In this document: piece by piece, positions 1 through 18,064 of the stretch | How the letters are laid out: each line of letters opens with the position of its first letter | Position numbering within the stretch: position 1 is the first letter of the stretch | From: Patescibacteria group bacterium | Lineage (GTDB): Bacteria > Patescibacteriota > Minisyncoccia > UBA6257 > HR35 | Assembly: GCA_040290225.1 (NCBI GenBank) | Contig: PSMS01000003.1 | Span: 1-37,992, forward strand | DNA: 37,992 bases | Reading direction: 5' to 3' | Notes under the pieces: generated by a model | Databases searched by the model: none | The model's input: only the letters and a program-made list of their open reading frames with translations | What the model was told of the DNA's origin: nothing | Program-made: the position numbers and the translations under genes

Positions 1-1
1 A

Positions 2-1654
2 ATGCTGTGGCAGAACACCCTCGCGGGCAAGGAACTCCACCCCCGTTATCGCTTCTTGCCCCTAGACACGAAATACTTCAAGGACCTGGAACTCCGGATC
101 ATTGGACTTTTTGACGACCTGGACGCCGCTCTGGACGGCTGGCTGGTCCACAGCGAGAACTACCAGGCACTGAACACGATGTTGCCGAAGTTTCGCGGGC
201 AGGTGAAGTGTATTTACATTGATCCGCCGTATAACTCTCCGGAAACCGAGATTCACTATGTGAATAGGTTCCGGGATGCTTCGTGGATAACTCTTATGGA
301 GAACCGCCTTGAGAAAGCAAAGGAATGGTTGCAAGAGCATGAGTCCGTTGTTTTTGTGGCAGTGGATGACTATGAAGTCATAAACCTTGGTGGACTGTTG
401 ACACAAAAACTAGCTGACTTTGATATAAATATTTTTGTGGTAGTCCATCACCCCCAAGGATCACCAAAGAACAATGTCTCAAGAATACACGAGTACACAT
501 TCGCAGCGATCACCCAAGGTGACGATTTGCTTCGAGTCCCGCGACCATCAGGTCATTCCAATGAAAGGCCTTTTATGCGCACAGGAACGGCTATCAACAA
601 TTTTAGGCACGGTCGCCCTAACAGCTTCTACGCGATAGTGGTTGATCCTTCCTCTGAGCGAATTGTGAGTATTGAAGATCCGCCGCCGATGGGAGCAAAT
701 TATCCGACAGAGCCTACATCAGAGGGTTATTTGCGGATTTACCCCATAGATTCCCAGGGACGCGAGCGAGTATGGAGGAAAACGGCAAATACCGCACGCA
801 AGATGCTGCTTCAAGGGAAACTTCTTTGTCGTCGGACACGGTCGGGATTTACCATTTTTGAAGAGGCGACTGTGGATTTTATCAAGCCAGTCAGCGTTTG
901 GACAGACAGCCGATATAATGCTGGGACACATGGAACTAGCCTGCTCGCCGATTTGTTTGGGACATCTGATGTGTTTTCTTACCCTAAGTCACTATATGCG
1001 GTACAAGATTTTATCGCCTCGGCTACTCATGAAGAACCCGAAGCCTTGATCCTCGACTTCTTCGCCGGCTCCGGCACTACGGGCCATGCGGTCATCAACC
1101 TGAACCGACAGGATGGGGGTAAGCGCAAATACATCTTGGTGGAGATGGCGGACTACTTCTACACCGTCCTGCTACCGCGCATCAAGAAGGCGGTCTTCTC
1201 GGACAAATGGCGGGACGGCAAGGCACAGCCGGAAGGGAAGGGCATCAGCCACTTCGTGAAGTATTACGAACTGGAGCAGTACGAGGATGTCTTGCGTCGG
1301 GCAAGCTATGCCGACGATGCGGACCTCTTCAGCGACCCCAACGAGCCGGTGCGCTATCTCTTCCTGCGGGACACCAAGATGTTGGACAATGCCGAGACAG
1401 GCGAGAAAGTAATGGAAGTGGACCTGGAGAAGGGCACAGTGAAGGTGGACCTGAGCAAACTCTACCGGGAAGGGGATCGGGACATCATTGACCTTGCCGA
1501 GACCCTTTCCAATCTCACAGGCAAGTGGATCAGGCGCATCCACCCCGACCCTGAAGAGCCCACCAAGCCCGGCAAGGTGGAGTTTCAGGATGGCACCGAG
1601 ATTGACTTAAAGAACCCGGATTGGCGGTTGATAAAACCGCTAATCTGGTGGTGA
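2..1654 (+). CDS. mod: Type III restriction-modification methyltransferase (Mod), N6-adenine MTase; probably 5'-partial
   Basis: Catalytic IYIDPPY motif precedes the SAM-binding LDFFAGSGTT motif (beta-class order), with FSYPKS between them. Lies directly upstream of a Res helicase. The ORF starts at the window edge. Confidence 0.93.
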   Translation: MLWQNTLAGKELHPRYRFLPLDTKYFKDLELRIIGLFDDLDAALDGWLVHSENYQALNTMLPKFRGQVKCIYIDPPYNSPETEIHYVNRFRDASWITLMENRLEKAKEWLQEHESVVFVAVDDYEVINLGGLLTQKLADFDINIFVVVHHPQGSPKNNVSRIHEYTFAAITQGDDLLRVPRPSGHSNERPFMRTGTAINNFRHGRPNSFYAIVVDPSSERIVSIEDPPPMGANYPTEPTSEGYLRIYPIDSQGRERVWRKTANTARKMLLQGKLLCRRTRSGFTIFEEATVDFIKPVSVWTDSRYNAGTHGTSLLADLFGTSDVFSYPKSLYAVQDFIASATHEEPEALILDFFAGSGTTGHAVINLNRQDGGKRKYILVEMADYFYTVLLPRIKKAVFSDKWRDGKAQPEGKGISHFVKYYELEQYEDVLRRASYADDADLFSDPNEPVRYLFLRDTKMLDNAETGEKVMEVDLEKGTVKVDLSKLYREGDRDIIDLAETLSNLTGKWIRRIHPDPEEPTKPGKVEFQDGTEIDLKNPDWRLIKPLIWW

Positions 1655-1658
1655 GCTG

Positions 1659-4646
1659 GTGGAGATGGCTAACATGCGGATTTACCTTCAGCAAATGGTG
1701 GAAGCGATCCGAGACGACGACCTGCCGGCGAACTGGCAGGGTATGGACTTGGAAACCTTTTCTCGGGAAAAACGCCTCTGGGACTACCAGCAAAAAGCCC
1801 TTAAAAACGCCTTAAAACTCCTCTGGAAGTACTACGAGGATTTCGGGGACTTTCGTCCTGGCGAAGATTTAAGCATCAACGCCGAGCGTAAGCGAAAACT
1901 CTGGCAGTGGTATCGGGATAACGGCCTTTCGGCTTCTTTGGACATAGAGATAAAACCTGGCCATCGCATTGGAGGTCTTCTCCGAGAATACTACCCCGTA
2001 ACGGACGGCAAAATCGCCTACGAGCATTTCATCAACCGTGCCTGTTTCTGGATGGCTACGGGCAGCGGGAAGACCTTGGTTATCGTGAAACTCATTGAAC
2101 TCCTGTGGCACCTGATGCGGCGGGAAGAGATCCCCAAGAACGACATCCTGGTGCTGACCCATCGGGACGACCTGCTGGAGCAACTTGAACGGCATGTGGA
2201 AGAGTTTAACGAGGACCGAGGGGATTTTCGCATCATCCTTAGAGAATTGCGGTATTATGCCTCTGCCCTGCGGGAAGCCTCCCTCTTTCGGGAACAGGCA
2301 GTTACCGTCTTCTACTACCGGTCCGACAACCTGAGCGATGAGCAGAAGGAAAAGATTGTAGACTTCCGCAACTACGATAACGATGGCCGGTGGTATGTGT
2401 TGCTTGACGAAGCCCACAAGGGAGATAAGGAAGAATCCAAGCGCCAGCACATCTATGCCATCTTATCACGCAACGGCTTTCTCTTCAACTTCTCCGCCAC
2501 CTTCACCGACCCTCGGGACATCGTCACCACCCTTTTCAACTTCAACCTTTCCGAATACATCCGGGCGGGTTACGGGAAACACATCTGTATTCTCAAGCAG
2601 GAGATGCGGGCTTTCCGGGATGGGGAAGACTATAACGGCGACGAGAAGCAGAAGGTGGTGCTCAAGGCACTTTTGATGCTGGCCTATGCCCGAAAGGTCT
2701 ATGAAAACAGGCAGGACAAAAGCGCCTATCACAAGCCGCTGATGCTTGTTCTGGTGAATTCCGTCAACACGGAAGACGCCGATTTGCTTCTGTTCTTTAG
2801 AGAACTGGAGCGCATCGGGAAGGGGGAGATTTCCGAATTGGCTCGGGCGAAAGTTGAGCTCCTGAAGGAGGAGCGTCCCCCCTTCGTGTTCGAAGAGGAG
2901 GGCGCCGAGATTGATGAAAGCCTGCTTGGTAGCCTGACGCCGGAAGACCTGCTTCGCCTTGTCTTCAATGCTGAAAGCCCTGGTGAGATAGAAGTCTTGG
3001 TGCGCCCTTCCGACCGCAAAGAAATGGCGTTCAAACTCAAGAGCACTGACCGTCCCTTCGCCCTTATCAAGATCGGCGACATCTCGGGCTGGCTCAAAGA
3101 AAAACTCGCCGGCTACGAAATCAACGAGCGCTTTGATGACGAAGGATATTTCACTCGCCTAAATGAGGAGGATTCAGAGATCACCATCCTCATGGGCTCC
3201 CGAACCTTCTACGAGGGCTGGGATTCCAACCGCCCCAATGTGATCTGTTACATCAACATCGGGGTCGGGGAGGATGCCCGGAAGTTCATCCTCCAGTCTA
3301 TCGGCAGGGGGGTGCGCATCGAGCCGATAAAGGGGCAAAGGAAGCGCCTTCAGTTTCTTTACAACGCCGGCCTCGTGGATCAGGACAGGTTCAGGGGGTT
3401 AGAGCCGGCTGCCAAGGCGCTGGAGACCCTCTTCGTCTTCGGGACGAAGCGCGAGGCTTTGAAGACGGTTGTGGAAGGCTTGAAACAGGAACACATGCGG
3501 ACCGGAGAGCGTCAACTCACCCTTTTTGAAGTGAATCCCACAGCAAAGGACAAATTGTTACTGGTGCCTGTTTATCAGCTGTCGGAAACGCCCCTTGCCG
3601 CAAGAAGGGAGCTGTCCAAGTTCCCCATTGAGAGTGGGGAGCTGGATCTGCTTCGCCGTTTTGTGGAGAGCACCGACGACCGTGTGCTCCTGATGCTGGG
3701 AAATGGAAATCTTGAGCCCCACAGCCTTCGGCTTCTCAAAAGCAGTTTCTCCGAGCCCGAGCGTTTCTACCGGACCGACGGACAGCGGTCTGGCGATGTT
3801 GTCCGTTTAATGCAGAGGGTGGCAGAGTATCTCGCCATCCGGCCTGAAGAGATAAAGAAGCTGAAGCCCTTGGAGGACGAAATCCGTCACTTCCGTCACA
3901 TCATCGTGACGCTGGAGGATCTGAAAAAACTGGAAGAACTGGAAGAGAAGATGCAAAGGGTCAAGTCTTTCAAGGTTCGGAAGGCAACGTACAGTTATGG
4001 CAAGTCAAGCATTATCATCAAGCACATCGCTCAGCATTACTACCTGCCTGTAGTTGTTGCGGAAAGTGACCGGGTGGACTACATCCGCCACATTATCAAA
4101 ACTCAGAGTGAACGCCAGTTCATTGAGAAATTGGAAGAGTATCTTTCCCAGCCGGACAACAGCTTTCAATTGTTTGACTGGTGGATGTTCAGCAAGATTG
4201 ACGAAAACCTCGATGACGTCTACATCCCCTACTATGACCCCAATGCCAATCGCATCGCCCGATTCAAGCCCGACTTCATCTTCTGGCTACAAAAAGGCTC
4301 GGACTATTTCATTGTTTTCGTGGACCCTAAGGGGACGGAGTATCGGGATGCCGACCGCAAACTGGAAGGGTATCGGATGGTATTTGAGGAAGAGGGTCGT
4401 CCCAAGGAATTCAATTACAATGGAATCAAGGTGCGCGTGCTCTGCTTTTTGTGGACAATAGATCGGGCACTGATTTCCGGCAACTTTAAACAGTACTGGA
4501 TAGACGAAAAATACGGGTTCGATTATTTAGTTAAACGAATCGTGAACCATCTGAGGGGCCGTTCCGGAAAGACTTACGGCCCTGAAGGAAATCCGGGCGG
4601 CCACCGAGGCGGAACTTCAGCGCCTGGAGCGGGCGATATTAGATAA
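1659..4646 (+). CDS. res: Type III restriction endonuclease Res subunit (SF2 helicase plus PD-(D/E)xK nuclease)
   Basis: Walker A MATGSGKT, DEAH box, FSATF, EGWD and QSIGRGVR helicase motifs; C-terminal FKPDF...FVDPKG nuclease motif. Confidence 0.93.
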   Translation: MEMANMRIYLQQMVEAIRDDDLPANWQGMDLETFSREKRLWDYQQKALKNALKLLWKYYEDFGDFRPGEDLSINAERKRKLWQWYRDNGLSASLDIEIKPGHRIGGLLREYYPVTDGKIAYEHFINRACFWMATGSGKTLVIVKLIELLWHLMRREEIPKNDILVLTHRDDLLEQLERHVEEFNEDRGDFRIILRELRYYASALREASLFREQAVTVFYYRSDNLSDEQKEKIVDFRNYDNDGRWYVLLDEAHKGDKEESKRQHIYAILSRNGFLFNFSATFTDPRDIVTTLFNFNLSEYIRAGYGKHICILKQEMRAFRDGEDYNGDEKQKVVLKALLMLAYARKVYENRQDKSAYHKPLMLVLVNSVNTEDADLLLFFRELERIGKGEISELARAKVELLKEERPPFVFEEEGAEIDESLLGSLTPEDLLRLVFNAESPGEIEVLVRPSDRKEMAFKLKSTDRPFALIKIGDISGWLKEKLAGYEINERFDDEGYFTRLNEEDSEITILMGSRTFYEGWDSNRPNVICYINIGVGEDARKFILQSIGRGVRIEPIKGQRKRLQFLYNAGLVDQDRFRGLEPAAKALETLFVFGTKREALKTVVEGLKQEHMRTGERQLTLFEVNPTAKDKLLLVPVYQLSETPLAARRELSKFPIESGELDLLRRFVESTDDRVLLMLGNGNLEPHSLRLLKSSFSEPERFYRTDGQRSGDVVRLMQRVAEYLAIRPEEIKKLKPLEDEIRHFRHIIVTLEDLKKLEELEEKMQRVKSFKVRKATYSYGKSSIIIKHIAQHYYLPVVVAESDRVDYIRHIIKTQSERQFIEKLEEYLSQPDNSFQLFDWWMFSKIDENLDDVYIPYYDPNANRIARFKPDFIFWLQKGSDYFIVFVDPKGTEYRDADRKLEGYRMVFEEEGRPKEFNYNGIKVRVLCFLWTIDRALISGNFKQYWIDEKYGFDYLVKRIVNHLRGRSGKTYGPEGNPGGHRGGTSAPGAGDIR

Positions 4647-5109: not shown

Positions 5110-6300
5110 CTAAATTTTTGCCAAAACTCTCTTTTTAAACTCTAAAAATCTATTTTCCTTGATTGCTTTTCTTATTTCTTTAAATAAATTCATTATCCAA
5201 AAAATATTATGTTCAACCAAAAGCATAATTCCATAAATTTCTTTTTCTTTTAATAAATGACAAATATAAGCTCTTGAATAATTTTGACAAACATTGCATC
5301 GACATTTAGGATCAATTGGTTTTTTATCAAGCAAATATTTTGAACTTCTTAAATTAATTCTTCCTTTATAACTAAAACCAGCGCCATGCCTTGCCCATCT
5401 TGTTGGAATTACACAATCAAATAAATCTATTCCTCTTTCAATTGAATTAAAAATATCATTAACTTCTCCAATCCCTAATAAATGTCTTGGTTTATTTTCG
5501 TCCAAAAGCGGAATTGTCCATTCTAAAACTTTAATCATATCTTTTTTACTTTTTCCTAAACTTCCACCAATTCCAAAACCAAAAAAGGGAAGAGAATTAA
5601 TAAATTTTGCTGACTCCTTTCTTAAATCTTCATATTCTCCTCCTTGAACAATTCCAAACATTACTTGTTTTTTATTTTTCCCAAATACTTCTAAACATTT
5701 TATTGCCCAACTGTGCGTTCTTTTTAATGCTTTTTTTGTATATTCGTAATCAGAAAGAGGAGAGGTGCATTCATCAAAAGCAAAAATAATATCAGCTCCC
5801 AAAATTTTTTGAACTTCAATTGAAATTTCAGGCGACAAAAACAATTTTTTTCCATTATAAGGAGAAATAAACTCAACCCCATCATCAAAAATTTTGACTA
5901 AAGATTTATTTTTTACAACTTGATGCTCTTTTTTAAATTGATTTTCATCAGGAAAAATATCAGCAATCTTACCAACTCCATGCTCTAAGCCAAAACCCAA
6001 ACTAAAAACCTGAAAACCACCACTATCAGTCATTAATGGTTTATTAATATTTAAAAATTTATGAAGACCACCAAACTTTTTAACAATTTTGTAGCGCTCG
6101 TTATGAAAAAAATGGAAAGTATTGATCATAAAAATTTCAGCACCAAAATTTATTGCTTTTTTAAAACTTAATCCTCTAATTGCTCCTTTGGTAGCAACAA
6201 TAGCTAAGTTAGGAGTATGTAAAATTCCGTGGGGTGTTTTTAAAATTCCTAATCTTGCTTTTGTTTTTTTATCTTTTTTTAAAATTTTAAATTGAAACAT
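5110..6300 (-). CDS. tgt: tRNA-guanine transglycosylase
   Basis: MTDSGGFQVFSL (catalytic Asp), AFDEC, GIVQGG, PRHLLGIG, DLFDCVIPTR and the Zn site CRCNVC...H. Confidence 0.97.
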   Translation of the reverse strand: MFQFKILKKDKKTKARLGILKTPHGILHTPNLAIVATKGAIRGLSFKKAINFGAEIFMINTFHFFHNERYKIVKKFGGLHKFLNINKPLMTDSGGFQVFSLGFGLEHGVGKIADIFPDENQFKKEHQVVKNKSLVKIFDDGVEFISPYNGKKLFLSPEISIEVQKILGADIIFAFDECTSPLSDYEYTKKALKRTHSWAIKCLEVFGKNKKQVMFGIVQGGEYEDLRKESAKFINSLPFFGFGIGGSLGKSKKDMIKVLEWTIPLLDENKPRHLLGIGEVNDIFNSIERGIDLFDCVIPTRWARHGAGFSYKGRINLRSSKYLLDKKPIDPKCRCNVCQNYSRAYICHLLKEKEIYGIMLLVEHNIFWIMNLFKEIRKAIKENRFLEFKKRVLAKI

Positions 6301-7190
6301 CAGTAATAAATTGTTTTAACTAATGGTTCAGGTATTTTCATTTTTATTTTATTGGCGATCGACCACAAAATTGTATCTAATTTATAAGATGGTATTTTTA
6401 TTTTTTGAGAAATTTCTTCTCCTAAAATAATTGTTGCCATTCTTAATTCAATTTCAAACAAGCTTTTACTTTTTATAATTTTTCTTTTTTTAATTTTTTG
6501 AAAATAAATTTTTGATGGAACTATTAAATTAAAATTTAAAAAAAGTTGTGGTAATTTATAATCAGCAAATACTGTTAGTTCTGAAAGCTCATTTTCATAT
6601 TTTTTAGTTAAATTTTTTGCAAGAATCAATTCATAATATAAAAGTTGGTTTGGTTTGAGAAAATAAAAATTTTTGTAATAGTCTTTAAATTTTCTTAGCT
6701 TACAAAGTTTTAAACAAAAATTCAAAGGCTTTTTATTTTCTTCAAAATAGTTATTGAAATCATTATCGTAAGATTTTAAAAAATTAAGAGCTTCTTTAAA
6801 AATCTGATAGCGCAATTTCGCCAAACCAATTTTTTCTTTAGGTGAGATAATTTTTTTAAAAGTTTGAAAGTCAATATTTCTATAGTTTTTTAAAAATAAC
6901 TCTTTAGTTCTTTCTAAAAGTCCATAAAAACCTTTTTGATTTTTATACTGCCAATTGTTTTTGAATTCCCACAATCTAAAATCCAAGCTCCTTAAAATAA
7001 AAATAAAATTAGCCAGTTCATTTTTTTCGATTTTTTGAAGCAAAGATATAAATTTTTCATTTTCGTTAATTTCTTTTAGAGATTGTTTTTTGAGCCAATT
7101 TAAAAAATCTAAATTTGTTTCTTTAATCTTTAAAATCTGAAAATTATAATTTTTGATTTTTTGAAAGATAAAATTTTTTAATCCAATCAT
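6300..7190 (-). CDS. Queuosine salvage family protein (DUF2419/Qng1-like queuosine nucleoside/nucleotide hydrolase)
   Basis: LTVFADYKLPQL, EIELRMAT and LDTILW resemble the family motifs LTMFADYRVPQ, EVEIR and LDxxLW. Its stop codon overlaps the tgt start codon (TGATG). Confidence 0.78.
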   Translation of the reverse strand: MIGLKNFIFQKIKNYNFQILKIKETNLDFLNWLKKQSLKEINENEKFISLLQKIEKNELANFIFILRSLDFRLWEFKNNWQYKNQKGFYGLLERTKELFLKNYRNIDFQTFKKIISPKEKIGLAKLRYQIFKEALNFLKSYDNDFNNYFEENKKPLNFCLKLCKLRKFKDYYKNFYFLKPNQLLYYELILAKNLTKKYENELSELTVFADYKLPQLFLNFNLIVPSKIYFQKIKKRKIIKSKSLFEIELRMATIILGEEISQKIKIPSYKLDTILWSIANKIKMKIPEPLVKTIYY

Positions 7191-8626: not shown

Positions 8627-8656
8627 GGGGGCGAGTGTACTCGCCCCCTATTTTTT
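8627..8656 (+). terminator. Rho-independent terminator
   Basis: GGGGGCGAG-TGTA-CTCGCCCCC perfect 9-bp stem followed by TATTTTTT, 7 nt after the stop codon. Confidence 0.85.
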
Positions 8657-8685
8657 CACTTTTATATACTATAATTAAGAAAAAT

Positions 8686-9636
8686 ATGATGACTCCGCGA
8701 GACCTAAAAAATTTTATAATTGATTTATATAATTTAGGTGAAAGACAGTTTGAAAAAGAAAGGATGGCGAAAGAAATGATCGAAGAGAGACTTAAATCTT
8801 TTAGAATCCCTTATACTTTGGAAAAATTTACTACTTCAATTCCGCTTATCGAAAAGGCAATTCTTAAACTAGACGGACGCCCTGTACCTTGTGTAGCAAC
8901 CTCAATGGTAAGCGGAAATATCAATAATCCAAACCACCTCATTAGCTCTTTAACCAGTTCTCAAAATTTTTTATTTGTTGAAAATATAAATTTTAATCCC
9001 TTATGCCCAAAGATTTCGCGTAGTAATCATTATTTTGCTCCTGCTATCGCTGTTCCACGCTATGTTGTGCCCAAAATATTCCGTGCTAAAAAGATAATCG
9101 GCAAAGTTCGTGTTAAAAAAACAAATCATCTATCTGCAAATATTCTCGTTGGCAATTGGATAAACCCCCGTTACCTTATATTTTCTCATTATGATTCTAT
9201 TTATGGCGGTGCAGTAGACAATGCCAGTGGAACTGCACTTTCACTCTTTCTTGCTGTTAATAATTCAAATCTACTAAAACAAACTCTTTTTGTATTTTCA
9301 GGTAACGAAGAACTTTCTTACGACAAACCAATTTATTGGGGTCATGGTTACCGCGTTTTTGAAGAGCGACATAAACACCTCTTGGAAAAAGCAAAAAAGA
9401 TATTAATTCTTGACTGCCTTGGCTTTAGTAAAACATTTTTTATCAACAAAGAAGAAATCGTGCGTTTAGGATTTCCAGTTAATTGTCTTCAAAAAATTAT
9501 CTCAAAGACTTGGATAGTTGCTGGTGATATACAAAAATTGATGAGATTTTATCACAGTGAACTTGACAAACCCTCACTCATCAGCGAAAAAGAATTAGTT
9601 AAAGCAGCTGCCGAGATTATTAGTAAATTAAGATAA
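8686..9636 (+). CDS. M28 family metallopeptidase (start moved from the GTG at 8635 to the ATG at 8686)
   Basis: SHYDS, GAVDNASG, GNEEL, LDCLG and YHSELD zinc-ligand motifs. The 8635 GTG lies inside the terminator hairpin. Confidence 0.85.
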   Translation: MMTPRDLKNFIIDLYNLGERQFEKERMAKEMIEERLKSFRIPYTLEKFTTSIPLIEKAILKLDGRPVPCVATSMVSGNINNPNHLISSLTSSQNFLFVENINFNPLCPKISRSNHYFAPAIAVPRYVVPKIFRAKKIIGKVRVKKTNHLSANILVGNWINPRYLIFSHYDSIYGGAVDNASGTALSLFLAVNNSNLLKQTLFVFSGNEELSYDKPIYWGHGYRVFEERHKHLLEKAKKILILDCLGFSKTFFINKEEIVRLGFPVNCLQKIISKTWIVAGDIQKLMRFYHSELDKPSLISEKELVKAAAEIISKLR

Positions 9637-9673: not shown

Positions 9674-11449
9674 TCACTCTGCTGTTTTTTCAATATCTTC
9701 TATTTCTTTTTTCACAAATTTTTCTGCGTTGTCTAAATCTTTTTTAAGCTTATTAATAATTTTTTCCTCTTCTTCGGTAAGTTGACGTTTTGAACGCGCT
9801 TTTTCCAGCATCTCGATCTGTTCAAGAATATCTTCTTTTAGGAAATCAAAAGCTTTGTGAAGTGCTTGTTCCGCTTCACCAACTTCCTTTTTCACTTTTT
9901 TCTTAAGGACTGTAAACTTATGCCACCAGTAATACAACAGATAGACAAGTAAGAAAATGAGCGCGATAAGCGGAACAATGACTGCGAGAAACTCTATAGC
10001 CCGAGATCCGATTCTAAACAATATAGGCTGTTCTACTATTATTGTAACTTTTTCACTGGGATTGCTTTTCGCGCCTCTTGCGTCTGTTACTTCAGCCCAT
10101 GCAGTATAAATACCTTTTGCTAATTTATCCTCTATAACAAAAGTAAAATTTCCATCTTGATCGCTTTTTACAGAATCATTTTTGAGAGCACCTTTTTCAT
10201 GTCGAAGCCAGAGTGATATCTGGGCGTTCGGATATTTTGTTTTACCTTTGATAATAAGAATTTCTTCGCTTGCTAATTTCTTTGGATAATCAGTGATAAT
10301 TGGTGGTTCTAATGGTTCAATGATAAAATCAGCGAAATTTGTTGTTGAATTACCAGCTTTATCTACAGCTTTAACAATCAAAGTGTATTTTCCTGGTTTT
10401 AAAACTGGTGTTTCGTATCTGTGGCTTCCATCATCTCTCCATATCTGTTGAACTTGATTGTCAATTTGAACTTCATAATAATCAATACCGGAAGTTTTGT
10501 CACTGGCATTAAAAATAAATCTTACTTTTGGCTCAGTCAAATCCGCTCTTGGTATTTCAGTTATTTCCAATCGTTCTGGTTTTTCTGTATCAATTTGAAA
10601 TCTAAAATGAGAAATCCTTCCCCAGCCATGTTTATTTTGGAATTGAACATGAAAATACCAAATACCATCAGCTAAATTTTCTAATTGCTTTTCAGAAATG
10701 GGCGGTTCATAAACTACTCTTGGCTCGGAATTGGGAAATTTATCATAAAGCAATCGGACTGCAGTTACATCAGCTGGTAATTGCCAAGAAAATTTTGGAT
10801 TTGGATTTTTGTACCATTTATTTGGATCAGGGTGAGTAGGAGAGGAAATAATTGGAGCAGGTGGAACTCCAACAAGGGGGGCTGCAGATTCGCTAGAAGG
10901 AAGTTCTTCAACTGGTGGAGTAACAAATGCAGGTTTTATAGTATAAGTTCCTCCACTCATCTGAGCTAAAACATTTGTTCCCTCACCATCATTAGCTAAA
11001 ACAGCTCCAGAAAAAAATTTAATTTCGGTTGTTCCTTCTTGTAAAGCCTTAAATTTTAAACTTATTATTTTTCCATTATTACCAATGAAACCAGGATTAA
11101 AAATTATCCCTTCTAAAAAAACTTCGCCAAGATCATTATCAAATCTTGGCTCTTGAACCCACAAGTTTATTTTTGAATCTGCTTTTGATAAAGAAATAAT
11201 TCTTAAATAATTTGGATCGAATTTTATTTTAACAGAAATAGCATTTATTGATTGGTCGGGAGAATTAACAAAAAGAGTAATTGTAAAGGTCTCACCGATA
11301 TTCACTGATTTTGATTGAGGGCTTAAAATTAAATCAGCAGAAAAAACAGATCGGGGTGCAATAAATAAGAAAAAAATACTTGAAAGCAATGAAAAAATTA
11401 TCAAGAATTTATAACTATAATCATTTTGTTTAATTCTCGAAATCTTCAT
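9674..11449 (-). CDS. Secreted, membrane-anchored cohesin-domain protein with Ig-like domains and a cytoplasmic coiled coil
   Basis: Signal peptide; GETFTITLFVNS..SINAISVKIKFDP..GKIISLKFKA..VLANDGEGT cohesin pattern; SGIDYYEV and VKAVDKAGN Ig-like motifs; C-terminal TM helix and K/E-rich tail. Confidence 0.8.
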   Translation of the reverse strand: MKISRIKQNDYSYKFLIIFSLLSSIFFLFIAPRSVFSADLILSPQSKSVNIGETFTITLFVNSPDQSINAISVKIKFDPNYLRIISLSKADSKINLWVQEPRFDNDLGEVFLEGIIFNPGFIGNNGKIISLKFKALQEGTTEIKFFSGAVLANDGEGTNVLAQMSGGTYTIKPAFVTPPVEELPSSESAAPLVGVPPAPIISSPTHPDPNKWYKNPNPKFSWQLPADVTAVRLLYDKFPNSEPRVVYEPPISEKQLENLADGIWYFHVQFQNKHGWGRISHFRFQIDTEKPERLEITEIPRADLTEPKVRFIFNASDKTSGIDYYEVQIDNQVQQIWRDDGSHRYETPVLKPGKYTLIVKAVDKAGNSTTNFADFIIEPLEPPIITDYPKKLASEEILIIKGKTKYPNAQISLWLRHEKGALKNDSVKSDQDGNFTFVIEDKLAKGIYTAWAEVTDARGAKSNPSEKVTIIVEQPILFRIGSRAIEFLAVIVPLIALIFLLVYLLYYWWHKFTVLKKKVKKEVGEAEQALHKAFDFLKEDILEQIEMLEKARSKRQLTEEEEKIINKLKKDLDNAEKFVKKEIEDIEKTAE

Positions 11450-11478: not shown

Positions 11479-12405
11479 CTATGGAAAAATTAATTTTTTA
11501 AAAACGATGAAAAGTATTATAGCAAAAATAATAATAAATATAATTTCATCCCCAACAAAAAGATTTTTTGGTGTTAAATATTCAATCCTTTCATTACCAG
11601 CCCGATCGATTGCCTTAACAAAAATAAAACTTCTTAAGGTTTGATCTTTAATCAGATAAGGAGATTCAACAATTTGAAAATCTTGTTCGCTGATTTTTGG
11701 TTTTAAAACGAAAAATCTTCCTGGTTTTTCGGCAACTTCATAATGAGAAATGCCTGATTGTTTATCTTTGGCTTCAAAAATTAAATAATTAATTCCATCA
11801 ATATTTACAATTTCAGGTTTAAATTCTTCAGGAGGAAAATTATCTTTTACTTCATAGAATGTTTTTCCAATGCCAGGAATAATTTTTATTTTCAAATTTT
11901 TAAAATTTAATTTATCTTGAGTTCCATAGCCATCATTTAATAAAGTTTTAGAGTTTGATAAAAATTCTATTATTATTTGTTTTTCATTTTTTACTTCATT
12001 AGGTGATGATAAGATAATACTTGCCAATTTTCCTCTTTTTCCGATATAACCGCCGGGAATAATTCCACTAAATTTTACTATATCACCAATATTTTCACTT
12101 CTCCTTTCTAAATATGGTTTTTCTAACCAGAAACTGATTATTGAATCACCAATAAAATAATCTTTGAAATTTAAATCTTTTGGTAAAGCAATTTCTGTTT
12201 CCAAAGCATTAATAGAATTTCCCTCAGTATCAATATAAACATCAACAACTATATCTTCTCCCGCAATATAATTATTTCTAGATTCTAAATAAAGTGTTGA
12301 AGCCCAACTAGTAGAACCTAAAAGGTTGGCTACCAGAAACGATAAAAAAATAATTTTTTTACAACTCTTCATTTTAAAAAAATTTTTTAAAATTAATTTT
12401 AACAT
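11479..12405 (-). CDS. Second cohesin-domain protein with a C-terminal TM anchor
   Basis: Signal peptide; VDVYIDTEGNSINALE..FSGIIPGGY..LLNDGYGT; SGISHYEV and VKAIDRAGN shared with the neighbouring gene; C-terminal hydrophobic helix. Confidence 0.78.
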   Translation of the reverse strand: MLKLILKNFFKMKSCKKIIFLSFLVANLLGSTSWASTLYLESRNNYIAGEDIVVDVYIDTEGNSINALETEIALPKDLNFKDYFIGDSIISFWLEKPYLERRSENIGDIVKFSGIIPGGYIGKRGKLASIILSSPNEVKNEKQIIIEFLSNSKTLLNDGYGTQDKLNFKNLKIKIIPGIGKTFYEVKDNFPPEEFKPEIVNIDGINYLIFEAKDKQSGISHYEVAEKPGRFFVLKPKISEQDFQIVESPYLIKDQTLRSFIFVKAIDRAGNERIEYLTPKNLFVGDEIIFIIIFAIILFIVFKKLIFP

Positions 12406-12411
12406 TTTTCA

Positions 12412-13473
12412 TTAACCCGTCCACCAATAAGCTAAAATACTAAAGTCACTTAAATTAACTTTACCATCATTATTTAAATCTGCTCTCTTACATTTTTCTG
12501 TTAATTTTCTTTTATAACAATAAGCCATAATTGAAAAATCAACTAAATTAACTCGACAATCATTATTTAAATCTGCTTTAATATTACAAACAGCTGGTTT
12601 TTTCAAAATTGTTTTTTCTCCAACCTTAAAGGCAACAGCTCTTGAATAAGGCGAGGTAATAACTAAACTTCTTTCTTTATAGGTTGATTTGGATTTTGTT
12701 AAATGTTCACCTATTTCTAAGTCGGTAGTATTTAAAGAATAAAAATAACCTCCTTGTTCATCAGCATAAACTTTTAAGAAAATTTCATTTTCTGAGCTTA
12801 TATTGATTAAAATTTCAGAATTGGGTACACTAAAACCAAAAATGCTAATATCTTCCCCCTTTTTAACATCTGTTTTATCAACATCAATTGTTGGTGAGAG
12901 AAAAACTCCGGTGATATTAATTGTTGAACCAGCAGAAACAAATGTTGGAAAAGTAAATAAATTTGTTCTTAGACCTTTTTTGTCTTCTCCATAAACAGAA
13001 AATAAATAACTGCCAGGATTAAGATTTGTCAGTCTTATTTGCCATTTTCCGTCTCTTTCAGCTCTGGTAGTTGCTTTTATAATACCATCAGATAAAATAG
13101 TAATTTCAGAACCGGGTGCTGCTAAACCAGAAATTATAACATCTCCTGTTTGCTGATAAGGAAAAAATCCACCGCCTCCACCACCAGAAGGAGGAGAAAC
13201 AAAACAACGAGAAGTATTAAAAGTACAATTGGGATTACAAGTTAAAGTACCACCAAAATATCCTAAACTAACACAATTTTGTCCTCCTAAATCACCACCA
13301 TCACATTCTTCCCCGGGTTCTTTAATATTATTTCCACAAACACCTTTCACAAAAGCAGTAATTTGGACATTACCAGCTCCAAAAATTTCAAATTTAAAAT
13401 ATAACAAAAAGATTATTAAAAAAAATAAAAAGAAAAATTTTTTCTTTTCTAATCTTAAATAATCTTTCATCAA
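12412..13473 (-). CDS. Secreted protein with a Cys-rich (DUF4215-like) motif, Ig-like domains and a C-terminal dockerin
   Basis: VCGNNIKEPGEECDG; Gly linker PPSGGGGGG; duplicated Ca-binding loops ADLNNDCRVNLVDFSIM and ADLNNDGKVNLSDFSIL. Confidence 0.85.
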   Translation of the reverse strand: MMKDYLRLEKKKFFFLFFLIIFLLYFKFEIFGAGNVQITAFVKGVCGNNIKEPGEECDGGDLGGQNCVSLGYFGGTLTCNPNCTFNTSRCFVSPPSGGGGGGFFPYQQTGDVIISGLAAPGSEITILSDGIIKATTRAERDGKWQIRLTNLNPGSYLFSVYGEDKKGLRTNLFTFPTFVSAGSTINITGVFLSPTIDVDKTDVKKGEDISIFGFSVPNSEILINISSENEIFLKVYADEQGGYFYSLNTTDLEIGEHLTKSKSTYKERSLVITSPYSRAVAFKVGEKTILKKPAVCNIKADLNNDCRVNLVDFSIMAYCYKRKLTEKCKRADLNNDGKVNLSDFSILAYWWTG

Positions 13474-13511
13474 TTTAATTCTAACACCAAAAGATTTCGT
13501 TTTTTATGTTT

Positions 13512-14408
13512 TTACGAATCGCTCTTTAATGCTTTTTTAATAATCCATTGATTATAAGCTCTAATTAGACGAGGTAAAACTAAAACTAAGAAAATAATAA
13601 CAAATAGCAAAATAATTGTAAATTTAAGAGGAAAAACAAAAATCCAAAAATTATAATTTAAAGATTGAGCATTATCTTTGCCGTAATTCATTGAAAGCAA
13701 AACATGATAGGGTCCAAAAGCAAAAGGCCCTTCCCATTTATTTTCTAAAATTTTTTCTTTATGAGGTAAAATTTGTAAAATTCTTGGATTAATTGAAAGA
13801 ATTGCTTTGGTTCTTCCAAAAATATCTTTAATTATCCAATTTCCTTCTGGTCTAATATAAGTATTTCCCTCATTTTTAACCGTTACTGCAAATTTTATCG
13901 GAAATCTGAAATTAAATACTTGGTAATCAATTTTAGAAAAACTTGCTTTTTCAATAATATTGCCGGCAACATTAAGATAAATTAATGAACCAACACGAGT
14001 TACAATACCAACTTGTCCTTCTTTTTCTTGAAGAGGCTTGTTTTGAAGCCATAAAACTAAAAAATGTCCTCCAGGTGGAGCTGATTGAGGAATATTAATC
14101 TCTACATCAACATATTTTAATTCTTTAGGTTTTAATTTTATTGATTTCGGTAATTGAAACCAATCTTTTTCAGGAGGATTTTTGTAAAAATTTTTAACTT
14201 CACCATCTTCAGTAAAACCCTCAAGATCAAAAATAAAATTATCTTCAAAATCAGAATCGTTTCTAACAAAAAATTGTAATTTAATTTTTTCACCAGGACT
14301 AGCGTTAATTTCAACCTTAGCTGGTCCAACAGTTAAAGCAAGTGAATCTTTAGAAAAAAACAAAAATCCAATTATTAAAACAATGAATAAACACGATTTC
14401 TTTACCAT
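13512..14408 (-). CDS. DUF916/DUF3324-like (WxL-interacting, PapD chaperone-like) membrane-anchored protein
   Basis: Signal peptide; LTVGPAKVEINASPGE, IPQSAPPGGHF, VKNEGNTYIRPEG and ILP motifs; C-terminal TM helix. Confidence 0.72.
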   Translation of the reverse strand: MVKKSCLFIVLIIGFLFFSKDSLALTVGPAKVEINASPGEKIKLQFFVRNDSDFEDNFIFDLEGFTEDGEVKNFYKNPPEKDWFQLPKSIKLKPKELKYVDVEINIPQSAPPGGHFLVLWLQNKPLQEKEGQVGIVTRVGSLIYLNVAGNIIEKASFSKIDYQVFNFRFPIKFAVTVKNEGNTYIRPEGNWIIKDIFGRTKAILSINPRILQILPHKEKILENKWEGPFAFGPYHVLLSMNYGKDNAQSLNYNFWIFVFPLKFTIILLFVIIFLVLVLPRLIRAYNQWIIKKALKSDS

Positions 14409-14428
14409 ATTTTTTAATTTTATTTTTT

Positions 14429-15055
14429 TTAATTTGATGTGCAGGAATAAGTAATTGTATCACTATAAGAACCTGCAAGAGTAAGACCAGAAATGGCTGC
14501 TTTATGTCTAACAACAACCTCACGATTAGCTGTTGGCGCTGAAGATGAAGCTAAAGGAATAGTAGTTGTTGTTAATCCACCAACAGTGTTTCCACTAAAT
14601 GAATGATTATATCTTGGATTTAAACTAAGAGTAGAACCCGAACCAGCGGTAGTAGTTGCTGCTTGAATACCATAACCCTCTGTACCGGCAGATAAATTTG
14701 CTGTTGGTGGAAAACCTGCTGCTGGTGAGGGAATTAAATGAGTAGGACTAGTTGATTTGTATAAACCACCATTAGTACCGTCGCCTTGATCCCTCACGCT
14801 TAATGTACATCCTGAAGCAGGGTTACAAGAAATTGTTGTTGTAACATTAGGAATTGATGTAAAAACATTCGAAGTATCGATAGTACCAAAGGCTGTTGTT
14901 GAAGTTGAAACCGTACAAGTAATCGAAGTAGCGACTGTAGCAGTAACATTTACTACTTGTTGACCGGAAAGATATTCAGGAGAAAACAAGTAAAATGAGA
15001 AAAACAATCCTAAAAGAAAAATAAAAATTACAGGTTTTTCCCGATAAATATCCAT
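14429..15055 (-). CDS. Small secreted WxL/pilin-like single-domain protein
   Basis: Signal peptide; N-terminal VNVTATV strand; C-terminal AGSYSDTITYSC strand, comparable to the terminal YxxxITWxL/GxYxDT strands of WxL and Csu/SCPU pilins. Confidence 0.65.
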   Translation of the reverse strand: MDIYREKPVIFIFLLGLFFSFYLFSPEYLSGQQVVNVTATVATSITCTVSTSTTAFGTIDTSNVFTSIPNVTTTISCNPASGCTLSVRDQGDGTNGGLYKSTSPTHLIPSPAAGFPPTANLSAGTEGYGIQAATTTAGSGSTLSLNPRYNHSFSGNTVGGLTTTTIPLASSSAPTANREVVVRHKAAISGLTLAGSYSDTITYSCTSN

Positions 15056-15189
15056 TTTATCAGCTAAATAAATAAATTAAATTCGACCCTCTTTATAATT
15101 TATTATATTTTATTTTCTTAAACTTAAAAAATTATTGTGGATAATTAAAGAGCTGAGCAGGAATAAGTAATTGTATCACTATAAGAACC
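14441..15189. repeat. 33-bp exact direct repeat at 14441-14473 and 15157-15189
   Basis: GCAGGAATAAGTAATTGTATCACTATAAGAACC occurs twice and encodes GSYSDTITYSC in both paralogues. Confidence 0.9.
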
Positions 15190-17403
15190 CGCAGGGGCCA
15201 GAAAGGAAACGGCTGCTTTATGAATAATTGTTATAACTTGATTAGAAACAGCTATACTTGAAGTTGCTAAAACTTGTGGGGTTAATGTTAATCCACCAAC
15301 ATTATTTCCGCTTTTATTATATTTAGGATTAATATTAATACTTGGATTAGTTGTTGTTGCTTGGATTCCGTAGCCATCAGAACCAGCAGTTAAAAGAAGA
15401 TCAGCAGATGGAATTAAATATGATGGAGCTGTTGATTTATAAAGACCAGGATTAGAACCATTACCAGCATCATTAATAGTAACCTGAAAACCAGCAGGAC
15501 TTGTAATTGTAAGATTAATATTAGGAGAAGAAGTCGAAACAGAACTTGGTGATAAATCCGAAAAATTTGTTGTTGTTGCTGAAACTGAACAAGAAATTGA
15601 TAGGGCTGCGGTAGTAATTTGCGGAATAACTAAATAACTATCTAATAAGGTACCATCACTTTTAACAATCCGGAAACAATAAGTGGTATTTGCTGATGCT
15701 CCATTATCTTTTAGCGAAAAATCCCATTTACCGTCTTGGCCCGAAGGAATAGCCGCCACCGAGTTGGTAAAATTATTCAGTTCTTCGTAGGTTTGATTAA
15801 CAATTGTATCCGCGCCATGAGTTGGGTCATTGACATTAGCAGTCAAAGCTACGCCATCAGCTGGTGTTGGGTTGTCGTTATAAGCAATAACAGTTGATGT
15901 TGTCACATCCACATAGGTCTCGCCGGAAAAGCCGGTATCGCATAAATTATCAGCTCCTCGCTGAGCAAACTGTAATTTAAATTCTTGTCCATTTATTGCC
16001 AATTGATTGCCACCAATATGTAAAAGCATTCTTAAGCGAAAAGCAGCGCCAGGAGAACTAAGCGTAGCTGGCGTATCTTGAGCTGCTAAAGGTGTTCCCA
16101 CATCTGTTGAGTCAAGATTATTGAAAAAGCGGTAGGCAGACTGAGTAAAAGTTGGCATTGCAAGACTTATGACTAAAAGTTTAGTTTCTCCATTTATTCC
16201 TGTGCCTGAAGCTAAAGCAGTCACTTGATAACTGGCATTGGCTGGAGCAGAAGGATGACGCCATAAAAGACCAAAACCTCGCATCCTAAAAGATGAACCA
16301 CTTGCTCCATATTCAAAATTAAATTGGTTAGAAGATTGAGTTACACCTCCTGTTTTTAATCTAATGTTGCCAGCGTTAATTGTTCTAACAGCATTAACAG
16401 TATTGATAGTATCAATTCCAGCAATAATTACATTTTCGCCAGCCGGTAAGGTAGTGTTTAATGTTCCGATTATTGTCTCGCTAGTGCCAATCGAGACATT
16501 TGGGGTATCTAAAAACTCGCTATTTAAGCCCTGCAAAACAATTATTTTTGCTTCGCCATTAACACCAGCGGCTGAAGCTGAGGCAGTAACAGTGTAAGTT
16601 GGGTTAGCCGGCGCTCCGACATCTCTAGCAATTAACATATAACCCATACTTCGAATTGCTCCACTTGCTATTTCTAAAACAATAGCATTTTGATTACTTG
16701 ATAATACTTGTGTTCCTCTCTTTAATTTTAAATTACCAGCCGAAATGTTTCTGGAGCCTGCAGTACTGGTGTTATCGGCCTGAAAAATAGCAATGACTAT
16801 ATTATCACCAGCTGGTAGATTTGGGCTATGAGTCAAAATAGTTGTTTCAGTAGTACCAATTGGTACACTTACTCCATCAGCAAAAGAAGAAGCTGGTGGG
16901 TTATTAATAACTAAAATTTTTACTTCTCCCTGAGAACCGGCACCATCAGCTTGAGCTGTAACTTCATAAGTTGGATTAGCTGGTGCTCCAGCATCTCTAT
17001 AAACCAGCATTGTAGCCACTTGTTTTTTTCCGGCTGTTGCTCCATCAGCTCTGATAAGAAATTCATTGCTGGCTAAAGTTACGCCTGCCCTTTTTAATCT
17101 TAAATTACCCGCCGAAATTGTTCTTACAGCAGCAGCCTGAGTAGCATCAAATTGAAAAACAACAATTATTAAATTATCTCCAGCCGGCAAATTAGTAGCT
17201 AAGCTTCCAATAGTAGTTTCGGTTGTGCCAATAGTCACTGCCGCTCCATCAAGAAAAGCAGAAGTTGCCGCTTTTGCTTCTTTTATTTTCGGCGGAAAAT
17301 TAAAAATTTGAGGAAAACCACTAAATATCCAGCTGAAAATAATTAGAATTATAATTGTGTAACGAATAAACTTATTAATTATTTTATTAAAAATTAATGA
17401 CAT
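15145..17403 (-). CDS. Large secreted adhesin-like protein: three ~120-aa repeats, a middle domain and a C-terminal WxL/pilin-like domain
   Basis: Signal peptide; C-terminal domain clearly paralogous to 14429..15055 (GLYKST.P..LIPS, GYGIQA.TT, INP.YN, HKAA.S.L..AGSYSDTITYSC). Confidence 0.8.
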   Translation of the reverse strand: MSLIFNKIINKFIRYTIIILIIFSWIFSGFPQIFNFPPKIKEAKAATSAFLDGAAVTIGTTETTIGSLATNLPAGDNLIIVVFQFDATQAAAVRTISAGNLRLKRAGVTLASNEFLIRADGATAGKKQVATMLVYRDAGAPANPTYEVTAQADGAGSQGEVKILVINNPPASSFADGVSVPIGTTETTILTHSPNLPAGDNIVIAIFQADNTSTAGSRNISAGNLKLKRGTQVLSSNQNAIVLEIASGAIRSMGYMLIARDVGAPANPTYTVTASASAAGVNGEAKIIVLQGLNSEFLDTPNVSIGTSETIIGTLNTTLPAGENVIIAGIDTINTVNAVRTINAGNIRLKTGGVTQSSNQFNFEYGASGSSFRMRGFGLLWRHPSAPANASYQVTALASGTGINGETKLLVISLAMPTFTQSAYRFFNNLDSTDVGTPLAAQDTPATLSSPGAAFRLRMLLHIGGNQLAINGQEFKLQFAQRGADNLCDTGFSGETYVDVTTSTVIAYNDNPTPADGVALTANVNDPTHGADTIVNQTYEELNNFTNSVAAIPSGQDGKWDFSLKDNGASANTTYCFRIVKSDGTLLDSYLVIPQITTAALSISCSVSATTTNFSDLSPSSVSTSSPNINLTITSPAGFQVTINDAGNGSNPGLYKSTAPSYLIPSADLLLTAGSDGYGIQATTTNPSININPKYNKSGNNVGGLTLTPQVLATSSIAVSNQVITIIHKAAVSFLAPAGSYSDTITYSCSAL
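16165..17262 (-). repeat. Three tandem intragenic ~120-aa beta-rich repeats (boundaries approximate)
   Basis: Each unit has IGT(T/S)ET.I, LPAG(D/E)N..I, I(S/N)AGN(L/I)(R/K)LK, APAN..Y.VTA.A and GE.K(I/L).V. Confidence 0.9.
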
Positions 17404-18064
17404 TTATTTGACAAATCGTCGTGGAATCGCCGCTCGTGTAAATTATCGGAATGCTGAAATTGCCTTTTTGCGAGCCTGGTTGATTTTTAATTTGTAAAAC
17501 AAAAACATTATCGCCTTTCCCCGGCACATACGTATAGTCGCCGTTATTGAGAAAAGTAATATCAATGCCTAGCGGTAAACTGCCGATTTCAATATTTTCT
17601 GAATCGCTTCGCACGCCTTCAAGAATAAATTCCACTATTGTTTTGTCGATACCTGTAAGGTCAATTTTAAAATTTTTTGCTGAGCAGGAATGTTTGGCGT
17701 TTTTAGCAATTTTTATTTCTTTGTTAAGCTTCCTTTCCTTAAGAGGTGGAAGTTGTATTTGTGGTAGTTCTTGAGGCTGGATTATTTCTTCCGGCGCTCC
17801 TCCTTCTTCTATTAGTTCTTCTGTTTGAGGTGTTTCGGTTATTGAACTGGTCGTTGTTTCATTAGTTGTTGTTGAAGTTACAAATTCAATGGTTGAAGTC
17901 GTAGTTGTATTAGTTGATGTTGCAATTTCTTCGGCAAATGCTCCAAGCGGAACTTTCAGGCTCTTCTCAATCAACGAACCGTTTCCAATTATCCAAACAA
18001 AAATTACCAAAAATATAACAAAAAATTTAGAAAATTTATCAATTATTTGTTTTACTCTTGGCAT
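17387..18064 (-). CDS. Secreted or membrane protein with a Thr/Glu-rich linker and a C-terminal Ig-like domain; first gene of the surface operon
   Basis: N-terminal hydrophobic helix, TSTNTTTTST linker, beta-rich C-terminus; overlaps the next gene by 17 nt. Confidence 0.75.
   Translation of the reverse strand: MPRVKQIIDKFSKFFVIFLVIFVWIIGNGSLIEKSLKVPLGAFAEEIATSTNTTTTSTIEFVTSTTTNETTTSSITETPQTEELIEEGGAPEEIIQPQELPQIQLPPLKERKLNKEIKIAKNAKHSCSAKNFKIDLTGIDKTIVEFILEGVRSDSENIEIGSLPLGIDITFLNNGDYTYVPGKGDNVFVLQIKNQPGSQKGNFSIPIIYTSGDSTTICQINVINF

Follow-up and report, generated by a model that had tools for sequence, protein, structure and literature searches.

The window analysed here, a 37,992-nucleotide stretch of DNA from a Patescibacteria group bacterium (contig PSMS01000003.1, positions 1 to 37,992), carries seven tightly packed genes on its minus strand that probably encode a pilus built by donor-strand exchange, without an usher and without a sortase, and with a dockerin protein as its terminator. 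Three of the encoded proteins are central to this reading: a large protein of 752 amino acids (aa), a small pilin of 208 aa, and a dockerin protein of 353 aa. A preliminary description of the sequence had divided the roles among them, so that the tip would only accept a strand, the shaft pilin would both accept and donate, and the dockerin protein would only donate. This three-way split held for the window, for the 21 syntenic loci, and for samples drawn database-wide, and it recurred in an independent second pilin family in which the strands of the pilin and of the dockerin protein had changed in parallel.

Just past the signal peptide, both the 208-aa protein (...EYLSGQQVVNVTATVATSITCTVS) and the 353-aa protein (...EIFGAGNVQITAFVKGVCGNN), each encoded on the minus strand, contain the motif V-x-[VI]-T-A-x-V, as the preliminary description had correctly quoted. 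The genome from which the window comes is 482 kb long, is 99.6% complete, and was examined as 863 open reading frames (ORFs) of at least 50 aa comprising 170,664 residues. The pattern V.[VI]TA.V occurred exactly twice in these ORFs, once in the small protein (residue 35) and once in the dockerin protein (residue 36), compared with 0.10 occurrences expected from composition. This count is post hoc, the motif having been defined from these same two proteins, and we therefore took its conservation as the stronger evidence.

Conservation was pronounced on both sides of the proposed interaction. The small protein had 334 database relatives, and in the 26 of these that were aligned, residues V35, V37, and A39 were invariant, as were the cysteine pairs C47/C205 and C77/C83, which are candidates for disulfides. 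The strict motif was present in 115 of the 120 best small-pilin matches, the remaining five reading VTVLA[ST]V. The dockerin proteins of the 21 syntenic loci and of the window (22/22) all contained a strand of the form h-x-h-x-A-x-[h/K] directly past an AxA-type cleavage region, and the dockerin protein of locus L015 retained the strand although the adjoining Cys-rich module had been lost. The strand is thus conserved in syntenic homologues of the dockerin protein, the preliminary description having named its absence there as grounds for abandoning the idea. Across the best 120 dockerin-protein matches, 60 contained the strict motif, 13 a loose form, and 47 something else, and most of these 47 carried a second strand type paired with a second pilin family.

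The 752-aa protein, which lies outside the interval covered by the preliminary description, was matched by the A1 profile at an E value of 5.8e-52 and reads ...YLVIPQITTAALSISCSVS at residues 590-608. It shares with the small pilin only the domain that follows the strand. The claim that homology between the two begins only at that point (ALSISCSVS in the large protein, ATSITCTVS in the small one) held, the quoted residues being correct: the pattern [VI].[VI].[AG].[VI] was absent from the 30 residues before the domain in the window's protein and in all 16 large homologues from dockerin-type loci. A profile search of 1.84 billion cluster representatives returned 624 clusters at E ≤0.001, of which the best 150 were classified. 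Within these 150, the domain was located at the very C-terminus of all 75 large representatives (at least 400 aa), none of which had the strand motif upstream of it. The strand formed an internal linker (DDQ-VxVxAxV-DPSI) in 11 of the 36 mid-sized representatives and was N-terminal in 22 of the 39 small ones, the other 17 being mostly truncated fragments or variants.

To both of the donor proteins the structural models assigned an unpacked N-terminal strand. The AlphaFold2 monomer model of the pilin had a mean predicted local distance difference test (pLDDT) score of 88.3, with the domain at residues 45-207 above 90 and the unpacked residues 31-44 at 65-69. The model of the dockerin protein contained two confident Ig/FnIII-like domains and the dockerin, and Foldseek matched it to tandem adhesin Ig/FnIII domains; Pfam assigned a type I dockerin and a Big_6 domain to the sequence, and LPxTG was absent from it. 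Residues 29-44 had a pLDDT below 50, and the strand was therefore not seen to pack into the protein's own fold, an outcome that would have counted against donation.

When the pilin without its own strand (residues 43-208) was co-folded with a 63-residue piece of the dockerin protein (residues 33-95), the three runs scored 0.80, 0.80, and 0.79, giving a score of 0.80 compared with 0.27 for the best control. Of 157 solved complexes, 116 attained the mark used for the co-fold, as did two of 215 mismatched pairs. The runs had at least 96% of their contacts in common and the partner had a pLDDT of 81. The interface joined residues 33-45 and 52 of the dockerin protein with pilin residues 47-60 and 184-205. 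Within it, pairs 197:40, 199:38, 195:42, and 201:36 placed the strand antiparallel to the last strand of the pilin, and pairs 56:39, 57:40, and 58:41 placed it parallel to pilin residues 54-59. In the model, this arrangement is the topology of donor-strand exchange, and the insertion of the dockerin protein's strand into a strandless pilin domain that the preliminary description had proposed thus passed its controls.

A second pilin family provided an independent view of the same relationship. We collected 80 metagenome loci around one dockerin variant without the window's motif, and loci L030-L109 (e.g., L039:4837-5343 and L040:4707-5237) encoded small pilins of 138-228 aa that had been missed by the profile of the first family. 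These operons also contain a shorter chaperone of about 200 aa and a large tip protein, and their gene order is otherwise the same. The strand of the second-family pilin follows the pattern [VI]-x-A-x-[VI]-x-[VI] (e.g., TVGATVTVQ), and the dockerin strand in the same operons follows that pattern as well (e.g., AVQATIKITV). In 13 second-family loci, homology between pilin and tip began at or past the end of the pilin strand.

Parallel change was counted in 53 loci in which genes for pilin, chaperone, and dockerin protein all occur. Alongside the first (the window's) pilin family (28 loci), the dockerin strand was of the [VI].[VI].A type in 23 loci, of the second type in two, and unclassed in three, these five exceptions being near-variants of the first strand type when judged by eye. 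Alongside the second family, with strand [VI].A.[VI].[VI] (25 loci), it was never of the first type, was of the second type in 15 loci, and was unclassed in 10. Sub-variants also matched, with VNLTVTV in the pilin and VNLQVTI in the dockerin protein of L088, and VLLTVTV and TNLTVTV in another pair. Cognate strand pairs outscored shuffled pairs (mean 19.7 compared with 18.2 for non-cognate pairs), and the observed value was reached in one of 5000 shuffles. As far as sequences can speak to it, this parallel change is the strongest comparative evidence for the proposed strand exchange.

The tip proteins of the two families were also compared. Ahead of the acceptor domain, the tip proteins of both pilin families have a conserved adaptor domain (window 15607-16152, residues ~418-599 of the 752-aa protein), with 60-74% identity across loci; it ends in Y-x-V-I-P-Q-I-T-T-A-A, which reads Y-L-V-I-P-Q-I-T-T-A-A in the window's protein. 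The N-terminal payloads ahead of it are variable and range from ~400 to >3500 aa. The internal linker VIPQITTAA was considered as a donor strand of the tip and rejected, as it contains a proline and lacks the alternating pattern; moreover, Y.V[IF]P[QE]ITTAA is the same in the tips of both families while their donor strands differ, so that it does not vary with the groove and is no donor strand. A tree of 144 pilin domains from a quick search was poorly resolved, with tip, shaft, and two-domain forms interleaved and no clean tip clade.

The fold of the pilin was compared with those of known fibre subunits. The sub-threshold Foldseek list was led by CfaB, CsuA/B, CupE, Caf1, and Fim pilins, and a profile search of PDB sequences with the pilin placed PapF on top (E 0.009). 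In the VIA structural comparison, 43 of the 50 entries listed were subunits of donor-strand fibres, including TLP-1a and TLP-1b (Z scores 8.7 and 8.6), the Csu pilus (7zl4_B, 7.4), CfaE (6k73_C, 7.3), CsuA/B (6fqa_B, 7.2), PapA (6.7), and FimG (6.6); the Csu- and CFA-type folds were thus ranked after the TLP-1 fibrils only. The family model NF058581 (CPR_Pam_pilin_C) was matched by 23 of the 26 aligned relatives (best E 8.1e-7), a distant homology below the curated cut-off. Weak matches to the SCPU family of Pfam occurred in five of the 26 relatives, and an Atlas language-model lead linked the pilin, at 0.93, to a cluster in which 60% of members carry WxL. Profile-profile alignment (hhalign) of the small pilins with two-domain pilins gave a probability of 100% and an E value of 4.2e-58, with QQVVNVTATVATSITC aligned to the inter-domain linker ADNSVSVTATVDPSITC; on this alignment, the N-terminal strand of the small pilin is a homologue of the donated linker of Pam-type pilins. 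Two other ideas were dropped: a C47-C205 disulfide that closes the groove only for N-terminal donors, as the two-domain pilin P0341 has the same cysteine pair, and NF058580 and NF058582 as neighbours of the Pam models, as they represent unrelated families.

The gene between the pilin and dockerin genes encodes a 298-aa protein that is a candidate for the chaperone. PF06030 was matched by 15 of its 23 relatives (best E 7.6e-7), its top PDB match was EfmWxLIP1 (9i25_C, E 0.048), and Atlas placed it at 0.91 to a WxLIP cluster of Bacillota. Together, these matches suggest a weak relative of the WxLIP/DUF916 chaperone family. Residues ~118-152 (window 13950-14060) form a conserved hairpin, W-W...Q-V-x-I-V-T-R-x-G-x-L-V-Y-L-x-V-x-G, with alternating apolar residues, and this hairpin is a candidate for the strand that the chaperone would lend to the pilin groove.

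For attachment of the fibre to the cell, the dockerin and its neighbours are candidates. The dockerin of the 353-aa protein (PF00404) scored 31.9 bits with a cut-off of 22.9, and a dockerin search of the whole genome returned this protein as its single match (34.7 bits). The 591-aa protein contains a cohesin (PF00963, 32.0 bits with a cut-off of 24.1), the only one in the genome detectable with Pfam, as well as a Big_13 match at 7.3e-15; the 308-aa protein shares 30% identity with this cohesin region (E 7e-9). No usher (PF00577) was matched in the genome at E values up to 0.01, nor among the seven operon proteins, and no sortase was matched in the 99.6%-complete genome. With one dockerin and one Pfam cohesin, both in the operon, and neither usher nor sortase, a dockerin-cohesin clasp is the only anchoring device visible. 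We propose that this clasp would fasten the fibre, and we hold this part of the reading less surely than strand exchange.

From these data we infer polymerisation, an order of assembly, chaperone action, and dockerin-cohesin binding, which would proceed as follows. All parts would be exported by Sec, and the membrane-anchored 298-aa chaperone would keep the incomplete Ig-like pilin domains foldable. The 752-aa protein would start the fibre and end up at its distal tip, because it has an acceptor groove and no donor strand. Copies of the 208-aa pilin would then be added, each inserting the strand at its N-terminus (V35-x-V37-x-A39-x-V41) into the preceding subunit's groove. The 353-aa protein, with the same strand at its mature N-terminus and no groove of its own, would fill the last groove and stop growth. 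Its C-terminal dockerin would bind the cohesins of the two neighbouring membrane-anchored proteins, fastening the base of the fibre.

The organisation of the operon and its conservation in related genomes were also examined (Table 1). The seven genes occupy positions 18064-9674 of the minus strand, with intergenic gaps of 6-89 bases and one overlap. Six of the seven proteins have a strong hydrophobic stretch at the N-terminus; a second such stretch is present at or near the C-terminus of the 298-, 308-, and 591-aa proteins, and there is none there in the 353-aa protein. The synteny sample comprised 26 loci from species-representative genomes, nearly all labelled Patescibacteria, Parcubacteria, or Paceibacterota-type, and 21 of them contained a dockerin-protein gene. 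The usual order, found in about 20 loci, is large protein, small pilin, 298-aa-like protein, dockerin protein, 308-aa-like protein, and 591-aa-like protein. The 308-aa-like gene followed the dockerin gene in 19 of the 21 loci and the 591-aa-like gene was present downstream in 18 of the 21; the latter was not seen in the searched stretch of L001 and L005, and in L003 the contig ends before its position. Of 301 genomes sampled from the phylum, 36 had a match to the dockerin protein, and a search of the 863 ORFs of the 482-kb genome found no second pilin locus. A scan for promoters and terminators gave 37 sites compared with 36.9 in shuffles and thus no excess. The 225-aa protein encoded by the first gene had no match in Pfam or NCBIfam; its C-terminal domain of ~115 aa is conserved, has cysteines in its first and last strands, and recurs upstream of the tip gene in four loci, sometimes on proteins of ~550 aa.

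Table 1. Features of the putative pilus operon, by position in the window; roles are those proposed in the text.
Feature	Position	Strand	Description
225-aa secreted or anchored protein, first gene of the operon	17387..18064	-	Hydrophobic stretch at residues 7-34, Thr-rich linker, C-terminal domain of ~115 aa
752-aa putative tip protein	15145..17403	-	Signal peptide, three internal repeats, adaptor domain, C-terminal pilin-like acceptor domain; no donor strand
Pilin-like acceptor domain of putative tip protein, residues ~600-752 (ALSISC...TITYSCSAL)	15148..15606	-	Aligned to small-pilin residues 43-208
208-aa putative shaft pilin	14429..15055	-	Signal peptide, N-terminal donor strand, incomplete Ig-like pilin domain at residues 45-207
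Putative pilin donor strand, residues 32-42, QQVVNVTATVA	14930..14962	-	V35, V37, A39 invariant; unpacked in monomer model
298-aa membrane-anchored chaperone candidate	13512..14408	-	Signal peptide, putative WxLIP/DUF916-like beta-sandwich, C-terminal transmembrane helix (hydrophobic stretch at residues 252-286)
353-aa putative donor-only terminator and anchor adaptor	12412..13473	-	Signal peptide, donor strand, Cys-rich module, Gly-rich linker, two Ig/FnIII-like domains, type I dockerin
Putative donor strand of dockerin protein, residues 33-42, AGNVQITAFV	13348..13377	-	Conserved; pLDDT <50 in monomer model; co-fold interface
Type I dockerin module, two calcium-binding repeats	12433..12576	-	PF00404; repeats DLNNDCRVNLVD / DLNNDGKVNLSD
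308-aa cohesin-like protein, candidate membrane socket	11479..12405	-	C-terminal transmembrane helix (hydrophobic stretch at residues 280-308)
591-aa protein, candidate membrane socket	9674..11449	-	Cohesin module, Ig-like domains, transmembrane helix (hydrophobic stretch at residues 480-510), cytoplasmic coiled-coil tail

One of the most similar known systems is the Pam pilus of Ca. Mycosynbacter amalyticus, a strand-exchange pilus of the candidate phyla radiation (CPR) described by Troman et al. (bioRxiv 10.64898/2026.03.03.709456; PMC13278184). In the portion of that report available, PamA and PamB were resolved by cryo-electron microscopy as two-domain pilins, each of which donates the linker between its domains to the truncated Ig-like domain of the next subunit, with membrane-anchored chaperones, a strandless tip (PamT), and a donor-only terminator (PamR) composed of two FnIII domains and a membrane helix. 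Both systems thus belong to the CPR, lack an usher, exchange a donor strand into a truncated Ig-like pilin domain (for the window, as proposed here), and have a strandless tip; the Pam chaperones are held by a C-terminal membrane helix, and the window's chaperone candidate has a C-terminal hydrophobic stretch; and PamR and, as proposed, the 353-aa protein are donor-only proteins with an N-terminal strand and tandem FnIII-like domains. They differ in that the window's pilin is single-domain and carries the strand at the N-terminus of the mature protein, whereas Pam pilins consist of an N-terminal domain, a linker, and a C-terminal domain; in that the window's tip is large and modular whereas PamT is small; and in that the window's terminator ends in a dockerin and is followed by two cohesin membrane proteins, whereas PamR ends in a transmembrane helix. 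That study places Pam mainly in Saccharimonadia and Microgenomatia, and the words 'dockerin', 'cohesin', 'Parcubacteria', and 'Paceibacter' do not occur in its text.

The WxL/Elr pilus of Enterococcus faecalis and other Bacillota (Sleutel et al., bioRxiv 10.64898/2026.10.17.759780) has the architecture of tip, pilin, anchored chaperone, and donor-only terminator that we propose for the window. According to the accessible part of that preprint, the large adhesin ElrA forms the tip, its acceptor domain being C-terminal and a donor strand being absent. The pilin ElrD has a single domain and its strand at the N-terminus, the chaperone ElrE (DUF916/DUF3324) is anchored by a helix at its C-terminus, and ElrB, with LPxTG, is the donor-only terminator. 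The precedent of PamR and ElrB in these two sister systems thus supports the donor-only terminator role proposed for the dockerin protein. The strand consensus differs, being V-x-V-x-A-x-V in the window and [S/T]-x-[G/A]-x-[V/I]-x-F in the Elr system, and the window's terminator has a dockerin in place of LPxTG and sortase, while its pilins have no Pfam WxL match. The WxL/Elr system is reported there as confined to Bacillota, and the preprint mentions neither CPR nor dockerin nor cohesin.

Among archaic and alternative chaperone-usher pili (Csu of Acinetobacter, CFA/I, CupE), the incomplete Ig-like pilin is likewise completed by the N-terminal strand of the next subunit. The neighbour's strand running antiparallel to the last strand of the pilin (here residues 195-201) is a feature of that class and was present in our co-fold, as a prediction only. 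The window's system differs in having no outer membrane or usher and a chaperone candidate anchored in the membrane, and identity with these pilins is 12-18%. The top structural match, fibrils TLP-1a and TLP-1b from pond water (PDB 9ikj and 9ikk; CryoSeek, PMC11494351), aligned over 157 residues with 12% identity. As far as the available text of that study describes it, TLP-1's N-terminal donor strand completes an Ig-like domain, as we propose for the window's pilin, and the donor is protomer n+4 in a tubule.

The clasp invites comparison with cellulosomes. Both modules exceeded their Pfam cut-offs as type I cohesin and dockerin, and the cell-bound cohesin carriers resemble the anchoring scaffoldins of cellulosomes. 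The differences are that there are no enzymes or carbohydrate-binding modules here, that the dockerin is located on a protein resembling a donor-strand pilus subunit, and that the window's cohesin carriers are anchored by transmembrane helices rather than by SLH domains or sortase. We found no literature report of a dockerin on a donor-strand pilus protein, or as a pilus anchor in CPR. Usher-free strand-exchange pili are thus already known, and what differs here is that the pilin has a single domain and that the putative donor-only terminator carries a C-terminal dockerin, with two cohesin membrane proteins encoded next to it.

Several observations weigh against our reading of the locus. All support for a pilus at this locus is computational; among the sequencing runs listed, no RNA run held the locus and one DNA run held a small share of its words. 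The co-fold score is a model confidence for one pair that may partly reflect likeness to solved chaperone-usher complexes. With the pilin model, Foldseek returned no PDB match at E ≤0.001 (best 1.6e-3), and VIA itself rates Z scores such as those obtained with it (7-8.7) as middling. The pilin itself scored 19.5 bits on NF058581 (E 8.2e-4) compared with a curated cut-off of 55 bits, none of its 26 relatives matched the Pfam WxL domain (PF13731) at E values up to 1, and the 298-aa protein scored 14.5 bits on PF06030 compared with a cut-off of 27.3. The window's motif was missing from 47 of the 120 best dockerin-protein homologues, and a few (e.g., SVQEASTKPLVAV) had no clear alternating strand. 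Finally, the signal of parallel change derives from few independent events, related loci not being independent, and shuffles within families reached the observed score in 1164 of 5000 cases for the first family and in 216 of 5000 for the second.

Strand exchange could be real and the role of the dockerin protein different from the one proposed. It might be a strand-attached adaptor that recruits cohesin proteins, links fibres, or binds the host, or it might cap the tip directly as a short stalk without a shaft. Its strand should fit the tip groove too, which belongs to the same domain family, no 591-aa-like gene was seen in the searched stretch of L001 and L005 among the 21 dockerin-type loci, and cohesin-dockerin binding is deduced here from sequence. 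We nevertheless regard this alternative as unlikely, given that the genome's sole dockerin and sole Pfam cohesin are both located in the operon, that both cohesin proteins have C-terminal transmembrane stretches, that their genes recur in most loci (19 and 18 of 21), and that no sortase or other anchoring route was found.

Two further explanations would dispense with strand exchange. If the N-terminal strand served as a tag for recognition or sorting, with the 298-aa protein or a processing enzyme as its reader, and were not inserted into a groove, its position in both proteins immediately past the region where the signal peptide is cleaved would be natural, as would a chaperone candidate encoded between the pilin and dockerin genes. 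However, the co-fold set the strand in the pilin groove well above the controls (0.80 vs 0.27), the homologous linker of two-domain pilins is not N-terminal, and the conserved gene order includes no peptidase gene; a tag therefore seems very unlikely to us. The likeness of the two strands could also be a coincidence of composition among secreted beta proteins rich in V, T, A, and S, each strand being the first in its own fold. With just seven residues, the motif is short and its definition was post hoc, and T/V/S/A-rich segments score high even in non-cognate pairs (mean 18.2 vs 19.7). This explanation is disfavoured and would be most improbable in the face of two occurrences, at matching positions of the two proteins, where 0.10 were expected, of a strand that is invariant in the pilin family and was kept in L015 after loss of the following domain, that is unpacked in both monomer models, and that changed in parallel in the second family. 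A donor-strand-exchange pilus terminated by the dockerin protein thus remains the reading we prefer.

Other features of the window were noted in passing. At its beginning (1-4646), two plus-strand ORFs (2-1654 and 1659-4646) with 52-54% G+C, compared with 24-39% elsewhere in the window, encode an N6/N4 DNA methylase and a ResIII/SNF2-type helicase; they look like a restriction-modification pair and may have been acquired from elsewhere. No rRNA was present in window 1-4646, and Rfam matched only two tRNAs in the window as a whole. On the minus strand at 5110-7190, a tRNA-guanine transglycosylase gene adjoins a gene for a queuosine salvage protein. A plus-strand gene for an M28-type peptidase (8635-9636) abuts the end of the operon and falls outside the conserved gene order of the other loci.

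If our reading is correct, cohesin and dockerin would serve as a pilus anchor, a use that we found in no paper, and a non-covalent third solution to anchoring would be added to those already described. It would also extend usher-free strand-exchange pili to Parcubacteria/Paceibacteria-type lineages and would connect the Pam systems of CPR with the WxL systems of Gram-positive bacteria via the chaperone. Whether Pam, WxL/Elr, and dockerin-capped pili branched from a single old family, in which single-membrane bacteria build strand-exchange pili with the guidance of chaperones and without an usher, seems to us evenly balanced; in such a family, the donor-only last subunit would be a swappable anchor cassette carrying a transmembrane helix, LPxTG for sortase, or a dockerin that fits into membrane cohesins. 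The existence of two strand dialects implies that, if strand exchange takes place as proposed, donor strand and groove can be re-coded together, and these co-varying dialects would constitute a natural experiment on groove specificity. The strand, its groove, and the dockerin-cohesin pair are all short, well delimited, and expressible. For the organism itself, about 8.4 kb of a 482-kb genome is devoted to this operon and no second pilin locus was found, so that the fibre may be a main means of contact with hosts or surfaces.

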